A program made the translations under genes and the position numbers. A stretch of 64,000 nt of DNA from Myxococcota bacterium. GTDB lineage: Bacteria > Myxococcota_A > UBA9160 > SZUA-336. The stretch lies in contig DATJZP010000067.1 of NCBI GenBank assembly GCA_035498875.1, positions 80,107 through 144,106 of the forward strand, in the 5' to 3' direction. The notes below the pieces were generated by a model. That model had not been told where the DNA came from, made no database searches, and worked only from the letters and a program-made list of their open reading frames with translations. Shown here piece by piece: positions 1-55,866 of this stretch. Each line of letters opens with the position of its first letter. Positions within the stretch are counted from its first letter, which is position 1.

Positions 1-325
1 ACAGTCCGACGCTGCGGCGTAGCTCGTTCAGATAGGCCTCGGCCTTGGGCAGGCCGATCGAGAGCACGAGCCGGCGGAACAGAAGTTGATCGTTTCCGCC
101 CGAAGCCGCCGCTGGAGGACGGCCCCTGCGTACACCGCCGGGCGCACGCTTGCCGGCCTTCTTCGCGGACGAGCGGGTCGTGTAGACCTGAGCGATCGAG
201 AGCTTGATGCCCTCGGCCTTTGCCTTGTCTACGACTTCTTTGGCGGGCATGGAGTGGGGCAGGGCTCGGATCCAGGCGGATTTGTTCACCCTGCCTGACT
301 TCGCTCGGCGTGTGGTCGTCGCCAT
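1..325 (-). CDS. hypothetical small Lys/Arg-rich protein, 3' end outside window (N-terminus MATTTRRAKSGRVNKSAWIRA...AKEVVDKAKAEGIKLSIAQVY)
   Basis: Reverse-strand ORF running off the window edge. ATG at 323-325 (rc) is preceded by a strong RBS AGGGAGAA. Not in the ORF track because there is no in-window stop. The N-terminus resembles small helical DNA/RNA-binding modules, but that resemblance is weak. Confidence 0.4.
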   Translation of the reverse strand, partial: MATTTRRAKSGRVNKSAWIRALPHSMPAKEVVDKAKAEGIKLSIAQVYTTRSSAKKAGKRAPGGVRRGRPPAAASGGNDQLLFRRLVLSIGLPKAEAYLNELRRSVGL

Positions 326-50530: not shown

Positions 50531-51610
50531 TCACGCGCCGGAAACCTGCCGGTACACGGCGCGCAGCTTGCGCGCCGACGCGGTCCACGACATGGCCTGC
50601 GCCCGCGCCAGGCCGCGCGCGCGCAGCTCGGCGGCGAGCGCCGAGTCATGGGTGACTCGCAGGAGCGCGTGCGCGAGCTCCTCGGGCTGGCGCGCGTCGA
50701 CCAAGAGCGCCGCGTCGCCCGCGGCCTCGGGCAGCGAGGCGGCGCGCGAGCACACCAGTGGCGTGCCGCAGGCCATCGCCTCGAGCACGGTCAGCCCGAA
50801 GCCCTCGTACAGGCTCGGCACGGCGCAGGCGCGCGCGGCGCCCAGCAGCGCCACGAGCTCGTCCTCGGGCAGGCCGGCGAGCCGCGTGGTGCGCGCGCGC
50901 AGGCCGTGCCGGTCGAGCGACTCCTCGAGCTCGCGCTCGCCGTCGCTGCCGCGCCCGACCAGCACCAGCCGCAGCTCGGGCAGGCGCTCGAGCGCGGCCA
51001 CCAGCGCGGGGAAGTTCTTGCGCCGCGAGAGCAGGCCGATCGAGATCACGTAGTCGCCGTAGCGCTCGCGCAGCTTGGCCACGGTCTCCGGCGCGGCGGG
51101 CTGGAAGCGCGCGGTGTCCACGCCCAGGTGCACCGGGTGCACGCGTTCGCGCGGCAGGCCGTACTCCTCGCACACCTCGCCGGCGGTAAACTCACTGTAA
51201 GTCACCACGTGGTCGGCGCGCGCCACCGCGTCGGCGATCTTGCCGCCGCGGCGCTCGTGCCAGTGCTCGCTCACCCACTCGGTGTTTCGCACCGCGTTCA
51301 GGTCGTGGATCGTGACGAGCTTCGGTACGCGCGGGGTCGTCGGCACGAACACGTTCATGGCGTGGAACAGCTTCGCGCCCGCGAGCAAGAGGCCGTTCCA
51401 GGGATCGGCGATCAGCCGCAGGCGCGCGTTCGGAGCCTCGGGCCGCCAGCGCTCGCCCTTGCGCGCACGGGAGAGCCGCGTGCACAGGAGATACTCGGTG
51501 CCCGGGTCGTCGGCGAGCAGCGCGCCGACCACGCCGCGGATCGTACCGCCCACGCCGCCCAGCGGCCCCCGCCCGGCCGCGGAGCTGACCTCGAGCGCGA
51601 GCCGAGTCAT
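50531..51610 (-). CDS. family-4 glycosyltransferase
   Basis: EGFGLTVLEAMACGTPLV (GT4 E-x7-E region). Confidence 0.85.
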   Translation of the reverse strand: MTRLALEVSSAAGRGPLGGVGGTIRGVVGALLADDPGTEYLLCTRLSRARKGERWRPEAPNARLRLIADPWNGLLLAGAKLFHAMNVFVPTTPRVPKLVTIHDLNAVRNTEWVSEHWHERRGGKIADAVARADHVVTYSEFTAGEVCEEYGLPRERVHPVHLGVDTARFQPAAPETVAKLRERYGDYVISIGLLSRRKNFPALVAALERLPELRLVLVGRGSDGERELEESLDRHGLRARTTRLAGLPEDELVALLGAARACAVPSLYEGFGLTVLEAMACGTPLVCSRAASLPEAAGDAALLVDARQPEELAHALLRVTHDSALAAELRARGLARAQAMSWTASARKLRAVYRQVSGA

Positions 51611-51626
51611 CGCGCCCCGGCGCCGC

Positions 51627-52391
51627 TCATTCGGCGCCGACGAGCCGCGGCAGGATCTCGCCGATCGGGCCGCGGATCACGGCGTCGGCCAGCTCGTCCA
51701 TCTCGGTCGGATCGCCGTTCACGATCACGATGCGCGCGCCGGCGCGCTTGGCGATCGGCACGACCGCCGCGATCGGATACACCGACAAGGTGCTGCCCAC
51801 CGCCAGCAGCAGGTCGCAGCGGTTCGCCTCGCGATCGGCGCGCTCGAGGTCGTGGGCAACCAGGTTCTGGCCGAACGAGATCGTGGCCGACTTCAAGATC
51901 CCCCCGCAGCTCCGGCAGGGCGGGTCCGACTCACCGGCGCGCACGCGAGCCAGCGCGCGCTCCATCGGCGCGCGCTCGCCGCAGTCCAGACAGGTCACCT
52001 CGCGCACGTTGCCGTGGATCTCGACCAGCTTCCCGGCCGACGTGCCCGCGGCCAGGTGCAGGCCGTCGACGTTCTGGGTGATCACGAGCGACACGCTTCC
52101 CGCTCGCTCGAGCCGTGCGAGCGCGAGGTGGCCGGCGTTCGGCTTCGCGTCCCACATCGGCGACTCGAGCCGGTGCCGCCAGGCGCGCTCGCGCACCTCT
52201 TTGTCGCTCACGTAGTGCGACAGGGTCGCCATCTTCTCGGCGCCGGGGTTCTTGGTCCACAGACCCTGCGGCCCGCGGAAGTCGGGGATGCCTGACTCGG
52301 TCGAGATACCGGCGCCGGTCAACACCACGATGCGTCGGGCCTCGCGCAGCCAGGACGCGACCTCGCGCAGCGCTTCTCGGGTCTGGGACAT
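51627..52391 (-). CDS. cobB: NAD-dependent protein deacylase (sirtuin, CobB/Sir2 family)
   Basis: GAGISTESGIPDFRG and zinc ribbon CLDCG...CRSCGG. Confidence 0.9.
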   Translation of the reverse strand: MSQTREALREVASWLREARRIVVLTGAGISTESGIPDFRGPQGLWTKNPGAEKMATLSHYVSDKEVRERAWRHRLESPMWDAKPNAGHLALARLERAGSVSLVITQNVDGLHLAAGTSAGKLVEIHGNVREVTCLDCGERAPMERALARVRAGESDPPCRSCGGILKSATISFGQNLVAHDLERADREANRCDLLLAVGSTLSVYPIAAVVPIAKRAGARIVIVNGDPTEMDELADAVIRGPIGEILPRLVGAE

Positions 52392-52446
52392 GCGCGAATT
52401 CTCGCACGACTGGCGCGAGCGGTCGTCCGTCTCCTAGGATGCCTGC

Positions 52447-53019
52447 GTGCCCGCACAACCGACCTCGTACCACTCACCGAAGCTCGAAGGACGTCGCATC
52501 GAGGGCAAAGGCGGCCGGACGCTGGTCGCCCGCGAGGCAGTCGAGCCCGACGAGCTGGTGGTCGTGTTCGGAGGCGAGGTGGTCCAGGCCGGCCAGCTCG
52601 CAAATTTGTCACCGGCGAAGCGCCTGCTGACGCTCCAGGTCGAGGAAGGTCTGTATCTCGTCTCGGGTCACGACGGTCCGGCCGACTGGGTGAACCACTC
52701 CTGCGCGCCCAACTGCGGCCTGCGCGGCCAGATCGCGCTGGTGGCGATGCGCCGGCTCGAGCCGGGCGAGGAGATCTGCTTCGACTACGCCATGAGCGAC
52801 GGCACGCCCTACGACGAGTTCCCGTGCGGCTGCGGCGCCCCGACCTGCCGCGGCAAGGTCAGCGGCGACGACTGGACCCGTCCCGAGCTCTGGAAGCGCT
52901 ACCGCGGCTACTTCTCGCCGTACCTGCAGCGGCGCATCGACCAGCTGGCGGGCGGTCGGGACTTGCGATCTCATAAGAGCCGGGGGCGAGCGCGGCAAGG
53001 GCAAGGGAGAACACGGTGA
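52447..53019 (+). CDS. SET-domain protein-lysine methyltransferase (with post-SET Cys cluster)
   Basis: NHSCAPN, EEICFDY and CGCGAPTCRG motifs. Confidence 0.7.
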   Translation: MPAQPTSYHSPKLEGRRIEGKGGRTLVAREAVEPDELVVVFGGEVVQAGQLANLSPAKRLLTLQVEEGLYLVSGHDGPADWVNHSCAPNCGLRGQIALVAMRRLEPGEEICFDYAMSDGTPYDEFPCGCGAPTCRGKVSGDDWTRPELWKRYRGYFSPYLQRRIDQLAGGRDLRSHKSRGRARQGQGRTR

Positions 53020-54155
53020 GCGATGCAGTGCAAGAGTACGAAGGCGCCCTGGACCGAGGGCTCGAGGGCGTAGTCACGTGCACCACCTCGATCAGCACGA
53101 TCGAGGGTACGACGCTCCTCTACCGCGGGTACACGATCGAGGACCTGGCCAAGAACGCCACCTTCGAAGAGGTGGTCTATCTGTTGTGGTACGGCTGGCT
53201 GCCGACCCGACGCGAGCTCGACGAGTTCTCGACCGACCTGCACCACAGCATGGCGCTGCCGCCCGAGGCCTTCGGCTGGTTCCACGGCCTGCCGACGCGC
53301 GTGCACCCGATGGACTTCCTGCACGCGGTGATCGCGGGACTCACGCTGCACGACCCCGACGCCAACCTGGTGAACGCCGCCGCCACGCTGCGCAAGTCGA
53401 CGCGGCTCGCGGCGCGCGTCGGCACGATCGTGGCCGCCTACCAGCGCGTGCGCTCGGGTCAGTGGCCGCTGCAGCCGCTGCCCGAGAAGTCGATCGCCTG
53501 GAACTTCCTCTACATGCTGAAGGGCGAGGAGCCGGACGAGCAGACCGTGCGCCGCTTCGACACGTGTCTCATCCTGCACGCCGACCACGAGCTGAACGCG
53601 TCGGCGTTCTCGGCGCGAGTCACCTCGAGCACGCTCTCGGGCCTCTACTCGAGCGTGATGGCCGCGATCGGCACGCTGAAGGGCCCGCTGCACGGCGGCG
53701 CGAACGAGCAGGTGGCGCGCATGCTGCTCGAGATCAAGTCGCTCGACCGGCTCGAGGGCTGGCTCGACAACACGCTGCGGTCGGGCGAGAAGGTGATGGG
53801 CTTCGGTCACCGCGTCTACAAGGAAGGCGACCCGCGCGCCAAGATCCTGAAGCGCATGAGTCAGGAGATCACGCGCGAGAACGGTCACCCGGAGCTGTAC
53901 GAGATGAGCGCCCGGCTCGAAGAGCTGATGCAGGCCAAGAAGGGACTCATTCCCAACGTCGACTTCTACTCGGCGTCGGTCTACTACAGCATGGGCATCC
54001 CGATCGATCTGTTCACGCCGGTGTTCGCGACCAGCCGCATCTCGGGCTGGTGCGCGCACGTGCTCGAGCAGTACCAGAACAACCGGATCTACCGCCCGCG
54101 CGGCAAGTATGTCGGGCCCACCGGCGAGGTCTACGTCCCGATCGACGAGCGCTAG
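53016..54155 (+). CDS. gltA: citrate synthase (short ~380-aa form; citrate or 2-methylcitrate synthase)
   Basis: GFGHRVYK and catalytic His/Asp context. Confidence 0.9.
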   Translation: MSDAVQEYEGALDRGLEGVVTCTTSISTIEGTTLLYRGYTIEDLAKNATFEEVVYLLWYGWLPTRRELDEFSTDLHHSMALPPEAFGWFHGLPTRVHPMDFLHAVIAGLTLHDPDANLVNAAATLRKSTRLAARVGTIVAAYQRVRSGQWPLQPLPEKSIAWNFLYMLKGEEPDEQTVRRFDTCLILHADHELNASAFSARVTSSTLSGLYSSVMAAIGTLKGPLHGGANEQVARMLLEIKSLDRLEGWLDNTLRSGEKVMGFGHRVYKEGDPRAKILKRMSQEITRENGHPELYEMSARLEELMQAKKGLIPNVDFYSASVYYSMGIPIDLFTPVFATSRISGWCAHVLEQYQNNRIYRPRGKYVGPTGEVYVPIDER

Positions 54156-54180
54156 GGCGCGCTCGCGCTGAATCGGATCG

Positions 54181-54614
54181 ATGGCGAGCCTGCTCCTCGC
54201 GGTCGCATGCGTGCTCGCGGCGACTCGAATCTGCGGCGCGCGGGTGCGCCGGGTCGGACAGCCGCCGCTGCTGGGCGAGCTGACGCTGGTGCGCGAAGAG
54301 ATCATGGCCACGGGCGTCGGAGTGGGTGTGGCCATCCCGCACGCGCAAGTGCCGGGTCTGGCTGCGCCCGTGGCCGCGCTCGGGCTGGCCGAGCCGGCGG
54401 TCGATTTCGGCGCGCCGGACGGGAGCCGGCGCGCGTGGTGGTGCTGGTCGTGACTCCCGCGGGGGACGACCGGGTGCAGCTCGAGCTCCTGGCCGAAGTG
54501 TCCCGGCTCTTTGCAAGCCCGGCCACGCGCCGGCGGGTTGCGCGTGCGCGGAGCTTCGAGGAGCTTACGGGGGCGCTGCGCGAGGCGCCGATCCGCGGCG
54601 AGGAGCATCGATAA
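54181..54614 (+). pseudogene. PTS EIIA(Ntr)-like regulatory domain ORF interrupted by a 1-nt deletion in a G-run at ~54425
   Basis: Frame 1 encodes REEIMATGVGVGVAIPHA...VDFGAPDG. Frame 2 continues PARVVVLVVTPAGDD...LLAEVSRLFASP...SFEELTGAL, which together make a typical EIIA(Ntr) sequence. Confidence 0.5.
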
Positions 54615-54618
54615 CCGG

Positions 54619-55866
54619 ATGGCAGTGCTGATCTGGGCTGGATTCCTGGCGCTGGTCCTCGTGTTCCTGGCGATGGACCTCGGCGTCTTCAACAAGACGC
54701 CGCGCGTGATCAGCACCCGCGAGGCGCTCGCCTGGACGCTGTTCTACGTCTCGCTGTCGCTCGCCTTCAGCGGCGTGGTGTACGCGCTCTTCCAGCACGA
54801 CTGGGGCGGCATCGCCAGCAACGCGCCGGGTCATCTGGACGGCAAGCACGCGGTGGTGCAGTACCTGACCGGCTACGTGGTCGAGTACTCGCTGTCACTC
54901 GACAACGTGGTCGTGATCGCGCTGATCTTCAGCTACTTCCGCGTGCCGCTCGCCTATCAGCACCGGGTCCTGTACTGGGGCGTGCTGGGCGCGCTGGTCT
55001 TTCGCGGCATCATGATCGGCGCGGGCGCCGCGCTGCTCGCGCACTTCAGCTGGATCTCGTACGTGTTCGGCGTGTTCTTGATCGTCTCGGCCGCGCGCAT
55101 GCTGGTGGCCAGCGGCGAGAGCATGTGCCCCGAGGAGAACAAGCTCTACCGGGCGGTGCGCAAGCTGTATCCGATCCACGACGACTTCGTCGAGCACAAG
55201 TTCTTCATCCAGCGCGACGGCCAGAGACTCGCCACCCGGCTGTTCGTGGTGTTGCTCTTCGTGGAGACCTCGGACGTGATGTTCGCGGTCGACTCGATCC
55301 CCGCGATCTTCGCGGTCACGAGTCACCCGTTCCTGGTGTTCAGCTCGAACGTGTTCGCAGTTCTGGGGCTGCGCAGCCTGTACTTCGCGCTGGCGCCCAT
55401 GATCGAGCACTTCCGCTACATGAAGGCGAGCCTCGTGCTCTTGCTCGCGTTCGTGGGCGTGAAGATGATCCTGGCGCACCACATCGAGATTCCGAACAGC
55501 GCTTCGCTGGGCGTGATCCTGGGGATCCTGGGCGTGGGCGCGCTGGCGTCGGTGATCGGCTCGCGCCGTGAGTCGGCCCGGCTCGGCTCGCCGGTCGGCC
55601 CGGCCGAGCTCGAGGCGCTGGCGCGACTCACGCTGCGCGCCGCGCGCCGCATGGTGGTGCTGGTGATCGGGGGGACGGTCCTGCTGGTCGGCGTGGCGAT
55701 GCTCGTGCTGCCTGGCCCCGGGCTGGTGGTCGCGCCCGCGGGCCTCGCGATCCTGGCCACCGAGTTCCTGTGGGCGAAGCGCCTGTTGGCGCGCGTGCGC
55801 GATTCGGCGGCGACCGCGGCCTCGACCGTCTCGGGCACGCTGCGCCGCGGGTCGCATGGGAGATAG
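54619..55866 (+). CDS. TerC-family integral membrane protein fused to a C-terminal PGPGW-type transmembrane domain
   Basis: TerC motifs (SLDNVVVIALIF; second repeat FAVDSIPAIF) plus C-terminal LVLPGPGLVVAPAGLAILATEFLWAKR. Confidence 0.8.
   Translation: MAVLIWAGFLALVLVFLAMDLGVFNKTPRVISTREALAWTLFYVSLSLAFSGVVYALFQHDWGGIASNAPGHLDGKHAVVQYLTGYVVEYSLSLDNVVVIALIFSYFRVPLAYQHRVLYWGVLGALVFRGIMIGAGAALLAHFSWISYVFGVFLIVSAARMLVASGESMCPEENKLYRAVRKLYPIHDDFVEHKFFIQRDGQRLATRLFVVLLFVETSDVMFAVDSIPAIFAVTSHPFLVFSSNVFAVLGLRSLYFALAPMIEHFRYMKASLVLLLAFVGVKMILAHHIEIPNSASLGVILGILGVGALASVIGSRRESARLGSPVGPAELEALARLTLRAARRMVVLVIGGTVLLVGVAMLVLPGPGLVVAPAGLAILATEFLWAKRLLARVRDSAATAASTVSGTLRRGSHGR

Follow-up and report, generated by a model that had tools for sequence, protein, structure and literature searches.

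Two pairs of genes stand back to back in the window, the term used here for the whole 64,000-nucleotide stretch of DNA that was analysed. The minus strand carries a gene for a sirtuin of the Sir2 family (51627..52391; 254 aa), class-U-like and with a Cys4 zinc ribbon. Downstream of it by 16 bp, on the same strand, is the gene for a GT4-family glycosyltransferase (50531..51610; Pfam Glycos_transf_1, 3.1e-28), which comes second in a predicted Sir2-GT4 transcription unit; in two relatives (L082 and L169) it overlaps the sirtuin gene by 4 nt. Across a divergent intergenic region of 55 bp (52392..52446), the plus strand carries a gene for a predicted stand-alone SET and post-SET methyltransferase (52447..53019; 190 aa), followed by one for a type II citrate synthase (citrate/2-methylcitrate synthase, 53016..54155). 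The last matches Pfam Citrate_synt at 6.7e-132 and, with 486 bits, clears the TIGR01800 cut-off of 421.

The two plus-strand genes meet at a GTGA junction, where the TGA that ends the SET gene (53017-53019) and the GTG that starts citrate synthase (53016-53018) give an overlap of 4 nt, and GGGAG lies 6 nt upstream of the second start. The SET gene itself begins at the GTG at 52447, the first start past an in-frame TAG (52435-52437), a choice that matches the N-termini of aligned homologues. Thus the physical description in the earlier note stands: a canonical sirtuin, a SET protein with intact motifs, divergent genes, a gap of 55 bp and the GTGA at which SET and citrate synthase overlap are all there. 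No extra copy of Sir2, SET or citrate synthase is found within the window. All three genes are under purifying selection, with dN/dS ratios, within the clade of relatives discussed below, of 0.24-0.35 for Sir2 and 0.2-0.3 for SET.

The sirtuin matches Pfam SIR2 (PF02146) at 2.2e-43 over profile positions 1-180 of 180. It has GAGIS at residue 26, PDFRG at 36, QNVD at 106, the catalytic His126 (within EIHGN) and a zinc ribbon formed by C134xxC137 and C159xxC162. It exceeds the cut-off of NCBIfam NF001753, the NAD-dependent protein deacylase subfamily (244.1 bits; cut-off 243), and falls below that of the narrower CobB equivalog NF040867 (248.6 bits; cut-off 320). Its closest solved relatives are Sir2-Af2 (1ma3, 3e-51) and Sir2Tm (5.5e-44), and with these class-U sirtuins and with bacterial CobB it shares a full-length match, the same Rossmann/zinc-ribbon architecture and the catalytic histidine. 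Unlike the desuccinylases of CobB/SIRT5 type, it lacks, as judged by eye, the YxxR motif at the corresponding position. A protein with these features is expected to be an NAD+-dependent lysine deacetylase/deacylase.

The SET protein scores 41 bits against Pfam SET (PF00856; cut-off 22.4, E 2.8e-10) and has GKGG at residue 20, NHSC at 83, FDY at 112 and CGCGAPTC at 127, so that the GxG, NHxCxPN and catalytic-tyrosine (F/Y)DY hallmarks of SET methyltransferases are all present. An alignment of 77 homologues shows no variation at N83, H84, C86, P88, C127, C129 or C134 and hardly any at Y114. Degenerate SAM-binding residues would have told against the earlier note's enzyme, and there are none: its catalytic and zinc motifs are intact. 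The post-SET CxCx4C together with the cysteine of NHSC (C127, C129, C134 and C86) makes a predicted zinc site. C-terminal to this is an extension of two helices specific to the family (residues ~137-168), then a basic tail; the extension, about 30 residues long, is conserved in the family as DDWxRPELWxRYxGYFSPYLQRRID.

A profile of the family finds the SET domain of MLL1 at 1.4e-21, over residues 9-136. An AF2 model made from the 77-sequence alignment (pLDDT 91.1, pTM 0.83), which replaced an earlier one made from 15 sequences (pLDDT 63), gives 342 Foldseek matches in the PDB with E <= 0.001, each of the 50 listed being a SET-domain protein. ASH1L comes first (E 6.6e-10, rmsd 2.5 A), and the SET domains of NSD1, MLL and SETD2 are also among the leading matches. 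The protein shares with MLL (KMT2), ASH1L, NSD and SETD2 the fold, GxG, NHSCxPN, (F/Y)DY with its catalytic tyrosine, and the post-SET CxCx4C. It differs from them in standing alone at 190 aa, without AWS/pre-SET, reader domains or partner-binding regions, in a C-terminal extension that has no counterpart there, and in coming from bacteria that have no histones.

Some characterised prokaryotic SET proteins methylate endogenous nucleoid proteins (Hc1/Hc2, MC1-alpha). Chlamydia cpnSET/NUE, Legionella RomA/LegAS4 and Methanosarcina Go1-SET are, like the present protein, small prokaryotic SET methyltransferases (PMC3980110), but by their descriptions the present family is set apart from them by its distinct C-terminal extension, and the pathogen proteins of Chlamydia and Legionella are effectors secreted to work on the histones of the host, while the present family is one of free-living environmental bacteria. 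A sirtuin or operon partner is not mentioned in that review of prokaryotic SET proteins (PMC3980110), and a search of the literature turned up no relevant account of SET-sirtuin pairing or of SET gene neighbourhoods.

How rare are such proteins? The earlier note called bacterial SET proteins uncommon, which is right in relative terms, but this single family alone comprises more than 2,368 protein clusters (all 120 homologues among those listed carry PF00856) and has at least 594 confirmed matches in species-representative genomes. Identity across phyla is 50-60%. The gene neighbourhood was examined at 164 loci: 80 in species-representative genomes, 80 on metagenome contigs (the best 80 of each collection, out of more than 590 loci) and 4 from further look-ups. 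The roughly 157 loci outside the clade of the present locus span at least six phyla, including Chloroflexota, Krumholzibacteria, Alphaproteobacteria, other Myxococcota, Spirochaetes and Acidobacteriota. No conserved neighbour that might reveal the substrate was found, and no neighbour family occurs in more than 13 of 80 loci. The commonest neighbour clusters (S9 peptidase, response regulator/histidine kinase, RsmB, IMPDH and GuaA) are lineage-specific. As a family, these stand-alone bacterial SET proteins are numerous and uncharacterised, and they have no conserved gene partner.

Against this background, the arrangement seen in the window is confined to one shallow clade, a narrow group of uncultured Myxococcota. 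A divergent Sir2 gene and a citrate synthase gene flank SET in 7 of the 164 loci, exactly those whose SET proteins are at least 73% identical to the one here. In these seven the citrate synthase match begins 6-39 nt past the end of the SET match, and all share a longer block: PMT, ABC, ABC2, ABC2, GT4, Sir2 on one side of the junction and SET and citrate synthase on the other. Two further clade loci were reached from the Sir2 side, and in all nine examined the Sir2-SET junction is stable. The 4-nt overlap of SET and citrate synthase is kept in every clade locus with full gene calls (L081, L082, L083, L167 and L169). Downstream of citrate synthase, by contrast, the clade loci are rearranged, with TerC, PGPGW, a Na/H exchanger-EIIA or MFP/MacB, a point against mere inheritance of gene order. 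Since dS within the clade is only 0.3-0.95, synteny is to be expected by descent, and preserved gene order weighs little.

In the loci examined beyond the clade, the arrangement is missing from whichever gene one approaches it. Neither a divergent Sir2 gene nor a downstream citrate synthase gene lies beside SET at any of the ~157 other loci, drawn from the best 80 per collection. Among the 78 species genomes outside the clade, SIR2 is the immediate upstream neighbour of SET in 0 of 71 cases and Citrate_synt the immediate downstream neighbour in 0 of 70. Outside the clade a citrate synthase-like match within 5 kb of SET turns up once, and it is a distant one (L043). The arrangement persists around Sir2 homologues at 83% identity; those at 75-76% lie in three other contexts (after PDH E1-E2-E3, after a DAO oxidoreductase and after DUF4410), without SET. 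Citrate synthases fall into a group of at least 88% identity, which is the clade, and a next group of at most 80%, of which three members at 77-78% identity each have surroundings of their own, unrelated to those of the others and with neither SET nor Sir2. The earlier note took a lack of recurrence in other genomes as evidence against its module. The pairing recurs in close relatives that share the longer block, with dS below 1, and not elsewhere among the loci sampled.

The intergenic region has features of its own. There is a minus-strand -10-like hexamer, GAGAAT, at 52398-52403, and in eight of nine clade loci nAGAAT precedes the start codon of Sir2 at a distance of exactly 6 nt; on the plus strand there is TAGGAT at 52435-52440, and the clade alignment has TA(G/C)GAT 6-12 nt before the SET start. 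I infer a promoter role for the two conserved hexamers, with starts that are predicted to be leaderless. A scan of 51400-54400 for consensus sigma-70 promoters and terminators gave no promoter and two terminator-like sites, both inside coding sequence; such a scan is uninformative in a myxobacterial genome of 70% GC. The length of the region varies among clade loci from 33 bp (L002) to 132 bp (L083), and its sequence is partly conserved. In L002 the middle has been deleted, so the supposedly shared control region is not conserved.

I propose that the locus consists of two independent units placed back to back, and that Sir2 and SET probably lie side by side because the local gene order was inherited, and not because they form a conserved functional module. 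The limitation of the pairing to a narrow group of uncultured Myxococcota gives it this look. Coupling runs instead to the partners on the same strand, Sir2 with GT4 and SET with citrate synthase. The minus-strand unit would supply a conventional NAD+-dependent sirtuin deacetylase and then a GT4 glycosyltransferase; the plus-strand unit would supply a minimal SET/post-SET SAM-dependent methyltransferase, translationally coupled to type II citrate synthase.

If so, the two enzymes may be pictured separately. The SET enzyme would bind SAM through its GxG and NH motifs and, by way of Tyr114 and an aromatic channel with Phe112 at the Phe/Tyr-switch position, would methylate a lysine, probably more than once. 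Cys86, Cys127, Cys129 and Cys134 would form the post-SET zinc site, and the C-terminal helices, which are conserved in the family and missing from eukaryotic SET domains, may contribute to substrate recognition. The target is most likely a lysine of a protein whose gene lies in another part of the genome. The sirtuin, like other bacterial sirtuins, would strip acetyl or acyl groups off metabolic enzymes.

An alternative view takes the operon at its word: SET would methylate the citrate synthase encoded downstream of it, and that enzyme may also be deacetylated by the sirtuin, so that the flow of acetyl-CoA into the TCA cycle would be tuned. There is a kind of precedent, in that mammals have a dedicated methyltransferase, unrelated to the SET enzyme here, for lysine methylation of their citrate synthase. 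The constancy of the 4-nt overlap within the clade is also in its favor, as is the position of a Sir2 gene 75% identical to this one directly after PDH E1-E2-E3 in another Myxococcota MAG, where a sirtuin again lies by acetyl-CoA metabolism. E. coli citrate synthase, moreover, has been reported to be a substrate of CobB (review PMC8603916). But in the 70 cases examined outside the clade citrate synthase never immediately follows SET, the one match within 5 kb is the distant one already noted, and no SET gene adjoins the citrate synthases at 77-78% identity. A SET family that holds at 50-60% identity across phyla without any link to citrate synthase speaks for a different substrate or a wider range of them. 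This explanation is unlikely.

What of the module suggested by the earlier note, in which SET and sirtuin act as writer and eraser on the same lysine or lysines of a common substrate, a nucleoid or metabolic protein, under shared divergent control? Both enzyme types act on lysine epsilon-amino groups, and each of the two modifications, methylation and acetylation, would block the other. The divergent arrangement is kept in every clade member examined, across spacers of 33-132 bp, and the motifs in the spacer are conserved. There is also one independent lineage of Alphaproteobacteria (L057, L109, L112, L118, L139 and L155) in which a sirtuin gene lies 0.9-2.5 kb upstream of SET. That sirtuin, however, is of a different subclass, the CobB type, and wherever the locus is fully resolved two opposite-strand genes separate cobB from SET; the crude probability of such proximity by chance is about 0.06, given ~42 independent synteny groups, which is borderline.

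The rest of the evidence goes against the module. The divergent pairing is missing from ~157 other SET loci, and close homologues of Sir2 (at 75-76% identity) and of citrate synthase (at 77-78%) outside the clade lie in other contexts. The clade is shallow, so the gene order kept within it carries little weight, and in L002 the spacer lacks its middle. The Lys-rich ORF at 1-325, named in the earlier note as a substrate to try, was translated, and nothing ties it to this locus. I consider the module very unlikely.

It may be that the SET protein does not methylate protein at all. BurB, a 172-aa SET enzyme of Burkholderia thailandensis, S-methylates free methionine in a biosynthetic pathway (PMC12542666), and the SET protein might similarly be a small-molecule methyltransferase. 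Both are bacterial, small (about 170-190 aa) and stand-alone (PMC12542666), and they are detectably related in sequence and fold: BurB (PDB 9l4t/9l4v) is matched by 9l4t at 2.1e-8 by sequence and at 7.1e-12 with the family profile, and the folds match over about 162 columns, the C-terminal part included. Identity is about 21%, however, and the fit is poor, with an rmsd of about 8 A. MLL1 is far closer (1.4e-21, as against 7e-12 for BurB), the catalytic tyrosine of lysine methyltransferases and a complete post-SET zinc motif are conserved, and no biosynthetic gene cluster was found near the SET gene. With its nearer kinship to lysine methyltransferases, the protein is most improbably a second BurB.

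Very unlikely, too, is the idea that sirtuin, SET and citrate synthase together form a lineage-specific post-translational switch where acetyl-CoA enters the TCA cycle. In such a switch citrate synthase, or some other enzyme that handles acetyl-CoA, would be methylated by SET at one or more lysines that are otherwise acetylated and then deacetylated by the sirtuin; were it true, a bacterial competition of methyl and acetyl groups on a metabolic enzyme would be encoded as one locus.

A conserved module, had it held, would have offered a switch between methylation and acylation of lysine in bacteria, with a substrate that could be defined, and it would have been valuable because hardly any SET protein of free-living bacteria has a known substrate. 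The locus shows ordinary lineage-specific gene order and does not itself identify a substrate. The interest that remains is in the SET family, which is large, uncharacterised, unusually well conserved across phyla and equipped with its own C-terminal extension, and which is a reasonable candidate for the biochemical discovery of substrates.

There is one more role in which sirtuins are met, that of anti-phage defence (Thoeris, DSR, SIR2-HerA and pAgo-associated Sir2). A Pfam match named "GT4-conflict" prompted a defence reading of Sir2 and GT4, but generic GT1 models score far higher. PADLOC gave marginal fragments for Sir2 (E about 6e-4 to 9e-4), none of them passing, and nothing for SET or GT4. 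The neighbours of Sir2 in the window are housekeeping genes.

The locus consists of four genes on two strands, in DNA that is 70% GC and whose genes have their nearest public relatives in MAGs labelled Myxococcota. On the minus strand is a 254-aa sirtuin (Sir2, 51627-52391), which covers the entire Pfam Sir2 profile (2.2e-43) and scores 244.1 bits against a cut-off of 243 for the NCBIfam deacylase subfamily NF001753. On the same strand, beginning 16 nt past its end, is a 359-aa ORF (50531-51610) matching GT4 glycosyltransferases (Pfam/NCBIfam). On the plus strand, a 190-aa SET-domain protein (52447-53019; Pfam SET 2.8e-10, 41 bits against a cut-off of 22.4) precedes a 379-aa type II citrate/2-methylcitrate synthase (CS, 53016-54155; TIGR01800, 486 bits). 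The start of SET is well defined: an in-frame stop, TAG, precedes it by 12 nt, and the N-termini of homologues align with this start. The sirtuin and the SET protein are both clear members of known families. An earlier note had described a canonical sirtuin with a zinc ribbon, divergent across some 55 bp from a SET gene that is translationally coupled to CS, and this description holds: the spacer measures 55 bp (52392-52446), the SET stop and the GTG start of CS overlap as GTGA (53016-53019) with GGGAG 6 nt upstream, Sir2 contains GAGIS26, PDFRG36, His126 and C134xxC137...C159xxC162, and SET contains GKGG20, NHSC83, FDY112 and C127xC129x4C134.

I propose, with fair confidence in the whole, that these genes are two transcription units standing back to back, Sir2-GT4 and SET-CS, whose juxtaposition would be a lineage-specific gene order. 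The likeliest role of SET would be that of a SAM-dependent methyltransferase of protein lysines, working in trans on a protein whose gene lies elsewhere, and that of the sirtuin the general deacetylation or deacylation of metabolic enzymes.

This SET protein belongs to a large family, with more than 2,368 protein clusters and at least 594 confirmed matches in one-genome-per-species contigs. Its members, usually at 50-64% identity, occur in Chloroflexota/Anaerolineae, Krumholzibacteria, Hyphomicrobium, Methyloceanibacter, several Myxococcota, Spirochaetes and Acidobacteriota. The flanks of 164 SET loci (the best 80 from genomes, the best 80 from metagenomes and 4 look-ups) were probed by tblastn with the Sir2, CS, GT4 and TerC proteins of the window. 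A divergent Sir2 as the immediate upstream neighbour, together with a downstream CS, appeared in seven (L001, L002, L081-L085), exactly those with SET identity of at least 73%. In these the CS match starts 6-39 nt past the end of the SET match (a 4-nt overlap in their own gene calls), and all seven have a longer block in common: PMT, ABC ATPase, two ABC-2 permeases, GT4 and Sir2, then SET and CS. Every examined locus with SET identity of 64% or less lacks the arrangement, including the Myxococcota loci Haliangium L016, Enhygromyxa L033 and L068. A Pfam scan of the immediate neighbours of SET in 78 non-clade species genomes, independent of tblastn, found SIR2 at none of 71 upstream positions and Citrate_synt at none of 70 downstream ones. 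No neighbour family is common to more than 13 of 80 loci, and those that recur often (S9 peptidase, class I methyltransferases, RsmB, IMPDH, GuaA) are housekeeping genes of particular lineages.

The view from the other two genes is the same. Two Sir2 homologues at 83% identity (P0144, P0129) retain the arrangement in full, and three at 75-76% lack it: P0212 directly follows the genes for PDH E1, E2 and E3 in another Myxococcota MAG, P0237 a DAO-type oxidoreductase gene and P0217 a DUF4410 gene. CS homologues fall on either side of a sharp gap, the clade at 88% or more and the next group at 80% or less; of the latter, three at 77-78% lie in contexts unrelated to one another, none of which includes SET or Sir2. 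By all three comparisons, then, the arrangement is a trait of one clade. Synonymous divergence of the clade from the window is only 0.3-0.95, over which gene order is expected to last by descent alone, so that little about function can be read from its conservation. The three genes are themselves under purifying selection, as judged by dN/dS within the clade of 0.20-0.30 (SET), 0.24-0.35 (Sir2) and 0.11-0.17 (CS).

Might SET methylate the enzyme with which it is co-translated, the sirtuin possibly acting on that same enzyme? CobB is reported to act on the citrate synthase of E. coli (PMC8603916), and a close Sir2 homologue adjoins PDH genes. Set beside the want of CS at the 70 positions scanned next to SET outside the clade, this reading seems improbable, though it fares best of the alternatives.

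The window's sirtuin is closest to Archaeoglobus Sir2-Af2 (1ma3, 3e-51) and Thermotoga Sir2Tm, classical NAD+-dependent protein deacetylases. It falls short of the NCBIfam equivalog threshold for CobB, and comparison with the Sir2 models of defence systems gave no meaningful match. The PDH-adjacent homologue, 75% identical (L165 1-5771, L166 1-5771; GCA_035542715.1), begins 26 nt past the E1, E2 and E3 genes on the same strand, E3 being lipoamide dehydrogenase, and hints at a link of this sirtuin lineage to acetyl-CoA or lipoyl enzymes. Among sirtuins, E. coli CobB and SIRT4 are known to have lipoamidase activity.

A slightly poorer prospect, and a decidedly doubtful one, is the earlier note's proposal that SET and Sir2 act as a module on a common substrate. 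It looked for the pairing to recur in other genomes, and in the loci examined the pairing is confined to the one clade. The nearest thing to a recurrence is in one alphaproteobacterial lineage, where at six loci (L057 from Methyloceanibacter, L109, L112, L118, L139, L155) a sirtuin of CobB type is encoded 0.9-2.5 kb upstream of SET; L057 and L112, in which the order is fully resolved, read aroC, cobB, rlmD-like and tlyA-like genes on the opposite strand, SET. This is a weak hint and not support for a module: the sirtuin is of another subclass, is not adjacent, and does not occur at the remaining 29 loci of that broad alphaproteobacterial group. When loci are joined by common neighbours (single linkage), about 42 synteny groups whose flanks are informative come out as independent, and the chance of at least one other group having a sirtuin within 2.5 kb is about 0.06, a crude estimate of my own that assumes one or two sirtuin genes per ~5 Mb genome. 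A possible substrate that the note suggested, a small Lys/Arg-rich ORF (1-325, minus strand; MATTTRRAKSGRVNKSAW...), lies 51 kb away, and its translation offers no tie to the locus.

That SET is a protein-lysine methyltransferase is argued by its likeness to others. With a family profile, residues 9-136 align with the SET/post-SET domain of MLL1 (1.4e-21), and a confident AlphaFold model (pLDDT 91, alignment of 77 homologues) finds its top structural matches in the SET domains of ASH1L, NSD1, MLL1/3/4 and SETD2. The earlier note had named degenerate SAM-binding residues as grounds for doubt; the motif residues are conserved in the 77 members, N83, H84, C86, C127, C129 and C134 being invariant and Y114 nearly so, from which the residues for cofactor binding, catalysis and zinc are judged intact. 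Phe112, at the Phe/Tyr-switch position in the alignment to MLL1, suggests that the enzyme may add more than one methyl group. It is least likely of all that SET is a small-molecule methyltransferase like BurB, a SET enzyme of 172 aa whose substrate is free methionine (PMC12542666), for although BurB is the sole solved bacterial relative among the matches listed, the resemblance (7e-12, ~21% identity, rmsd ~8 A) is far weaker than that to lysine methyltransferases.

The family also carries a conserved C-terminal extension of ~30 residues, DDWxRPELWxRYxGYFSPYLQRRID (within residues ~137-190, window 52855-53019), modelled as two helices and without counterpart in eukaryotic SET structures. In clade members a low-confidence tail rich in Arg/Lys follows (RSHKSRGRARQGQGRTR), and the DNA that encodes it also contains the ribosome-binding site of CS. 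In the literature searched, no SET-sirtuin gene pair is described, nor any partner conserved with the SET genes of bacteria. The family, uncharacterised yet unusually conserved, is of modest intrinsic interest, and the locus does not reveal its substrate.

Some SET neighbours deserve mention. In Alphaproteobacteria, rRNA methyltransferase genes adjoin SET in two distinct arrangements, with RsmB upstream (L022, L029, L037, L038, L040, L047, L066, L067) or with TlyA/FtsJ and RlmD-like genes upstream (L057, L112, L109 and relatives), and at six Anaerolineae loci a class I methyltransferase gene ends ~20 nt 5' of SET. These may point to a substrate connected with translation, or may be chance. At three alphaproteobacterial loci a second, shorter SET ORF (146 aa) lies directly 3' of the first and makes a tandem pair with it (L112 4659-5099, L109 3103-3543 and a third); among downstream neighbours such ORFs match Pfam SET down to 2e-14.

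Within the spacer, the clade loci conserve a -10-like hexamer close to each start codon, at an almost constant distance: (G/T)AGAAT (52398-52403, minus strand) precedes the Sir2 ATG by exactly 6 nt in eight of nine loci, and TA(G/C)GAT (52435-52440, plus strand) precedes the SET start by 6-12 nt. Their closeness to the start codons suggests back-to-back promoters whose mRNAs would have no leader or a very short one. L002 has a deletion of ~23 bp in the middle of the spacer.

Between CS and TerC lies a frameshifted remnant (54292-54623, plus strand) of a gene that fuses a Na+/H+ exchanger to EIIA; what is left is the C-terminal PTS_EIIA_2 part, closed by a stop. Its two frames meet near 54423 and are 75% and 63% identical to the L083 protein. 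The intact fusion gene follows CS in L082, L083 and L167; the exchanger part is deleted in the window, so the remnant is probably a pseudogene fragment. The TerC membrane protein (54511-55866, plus strand) carries a fused PGPGW domain at its C-terminus; in L081, L082 and L083, where TerC is missing at that position, PGPGW is a separate small gene.
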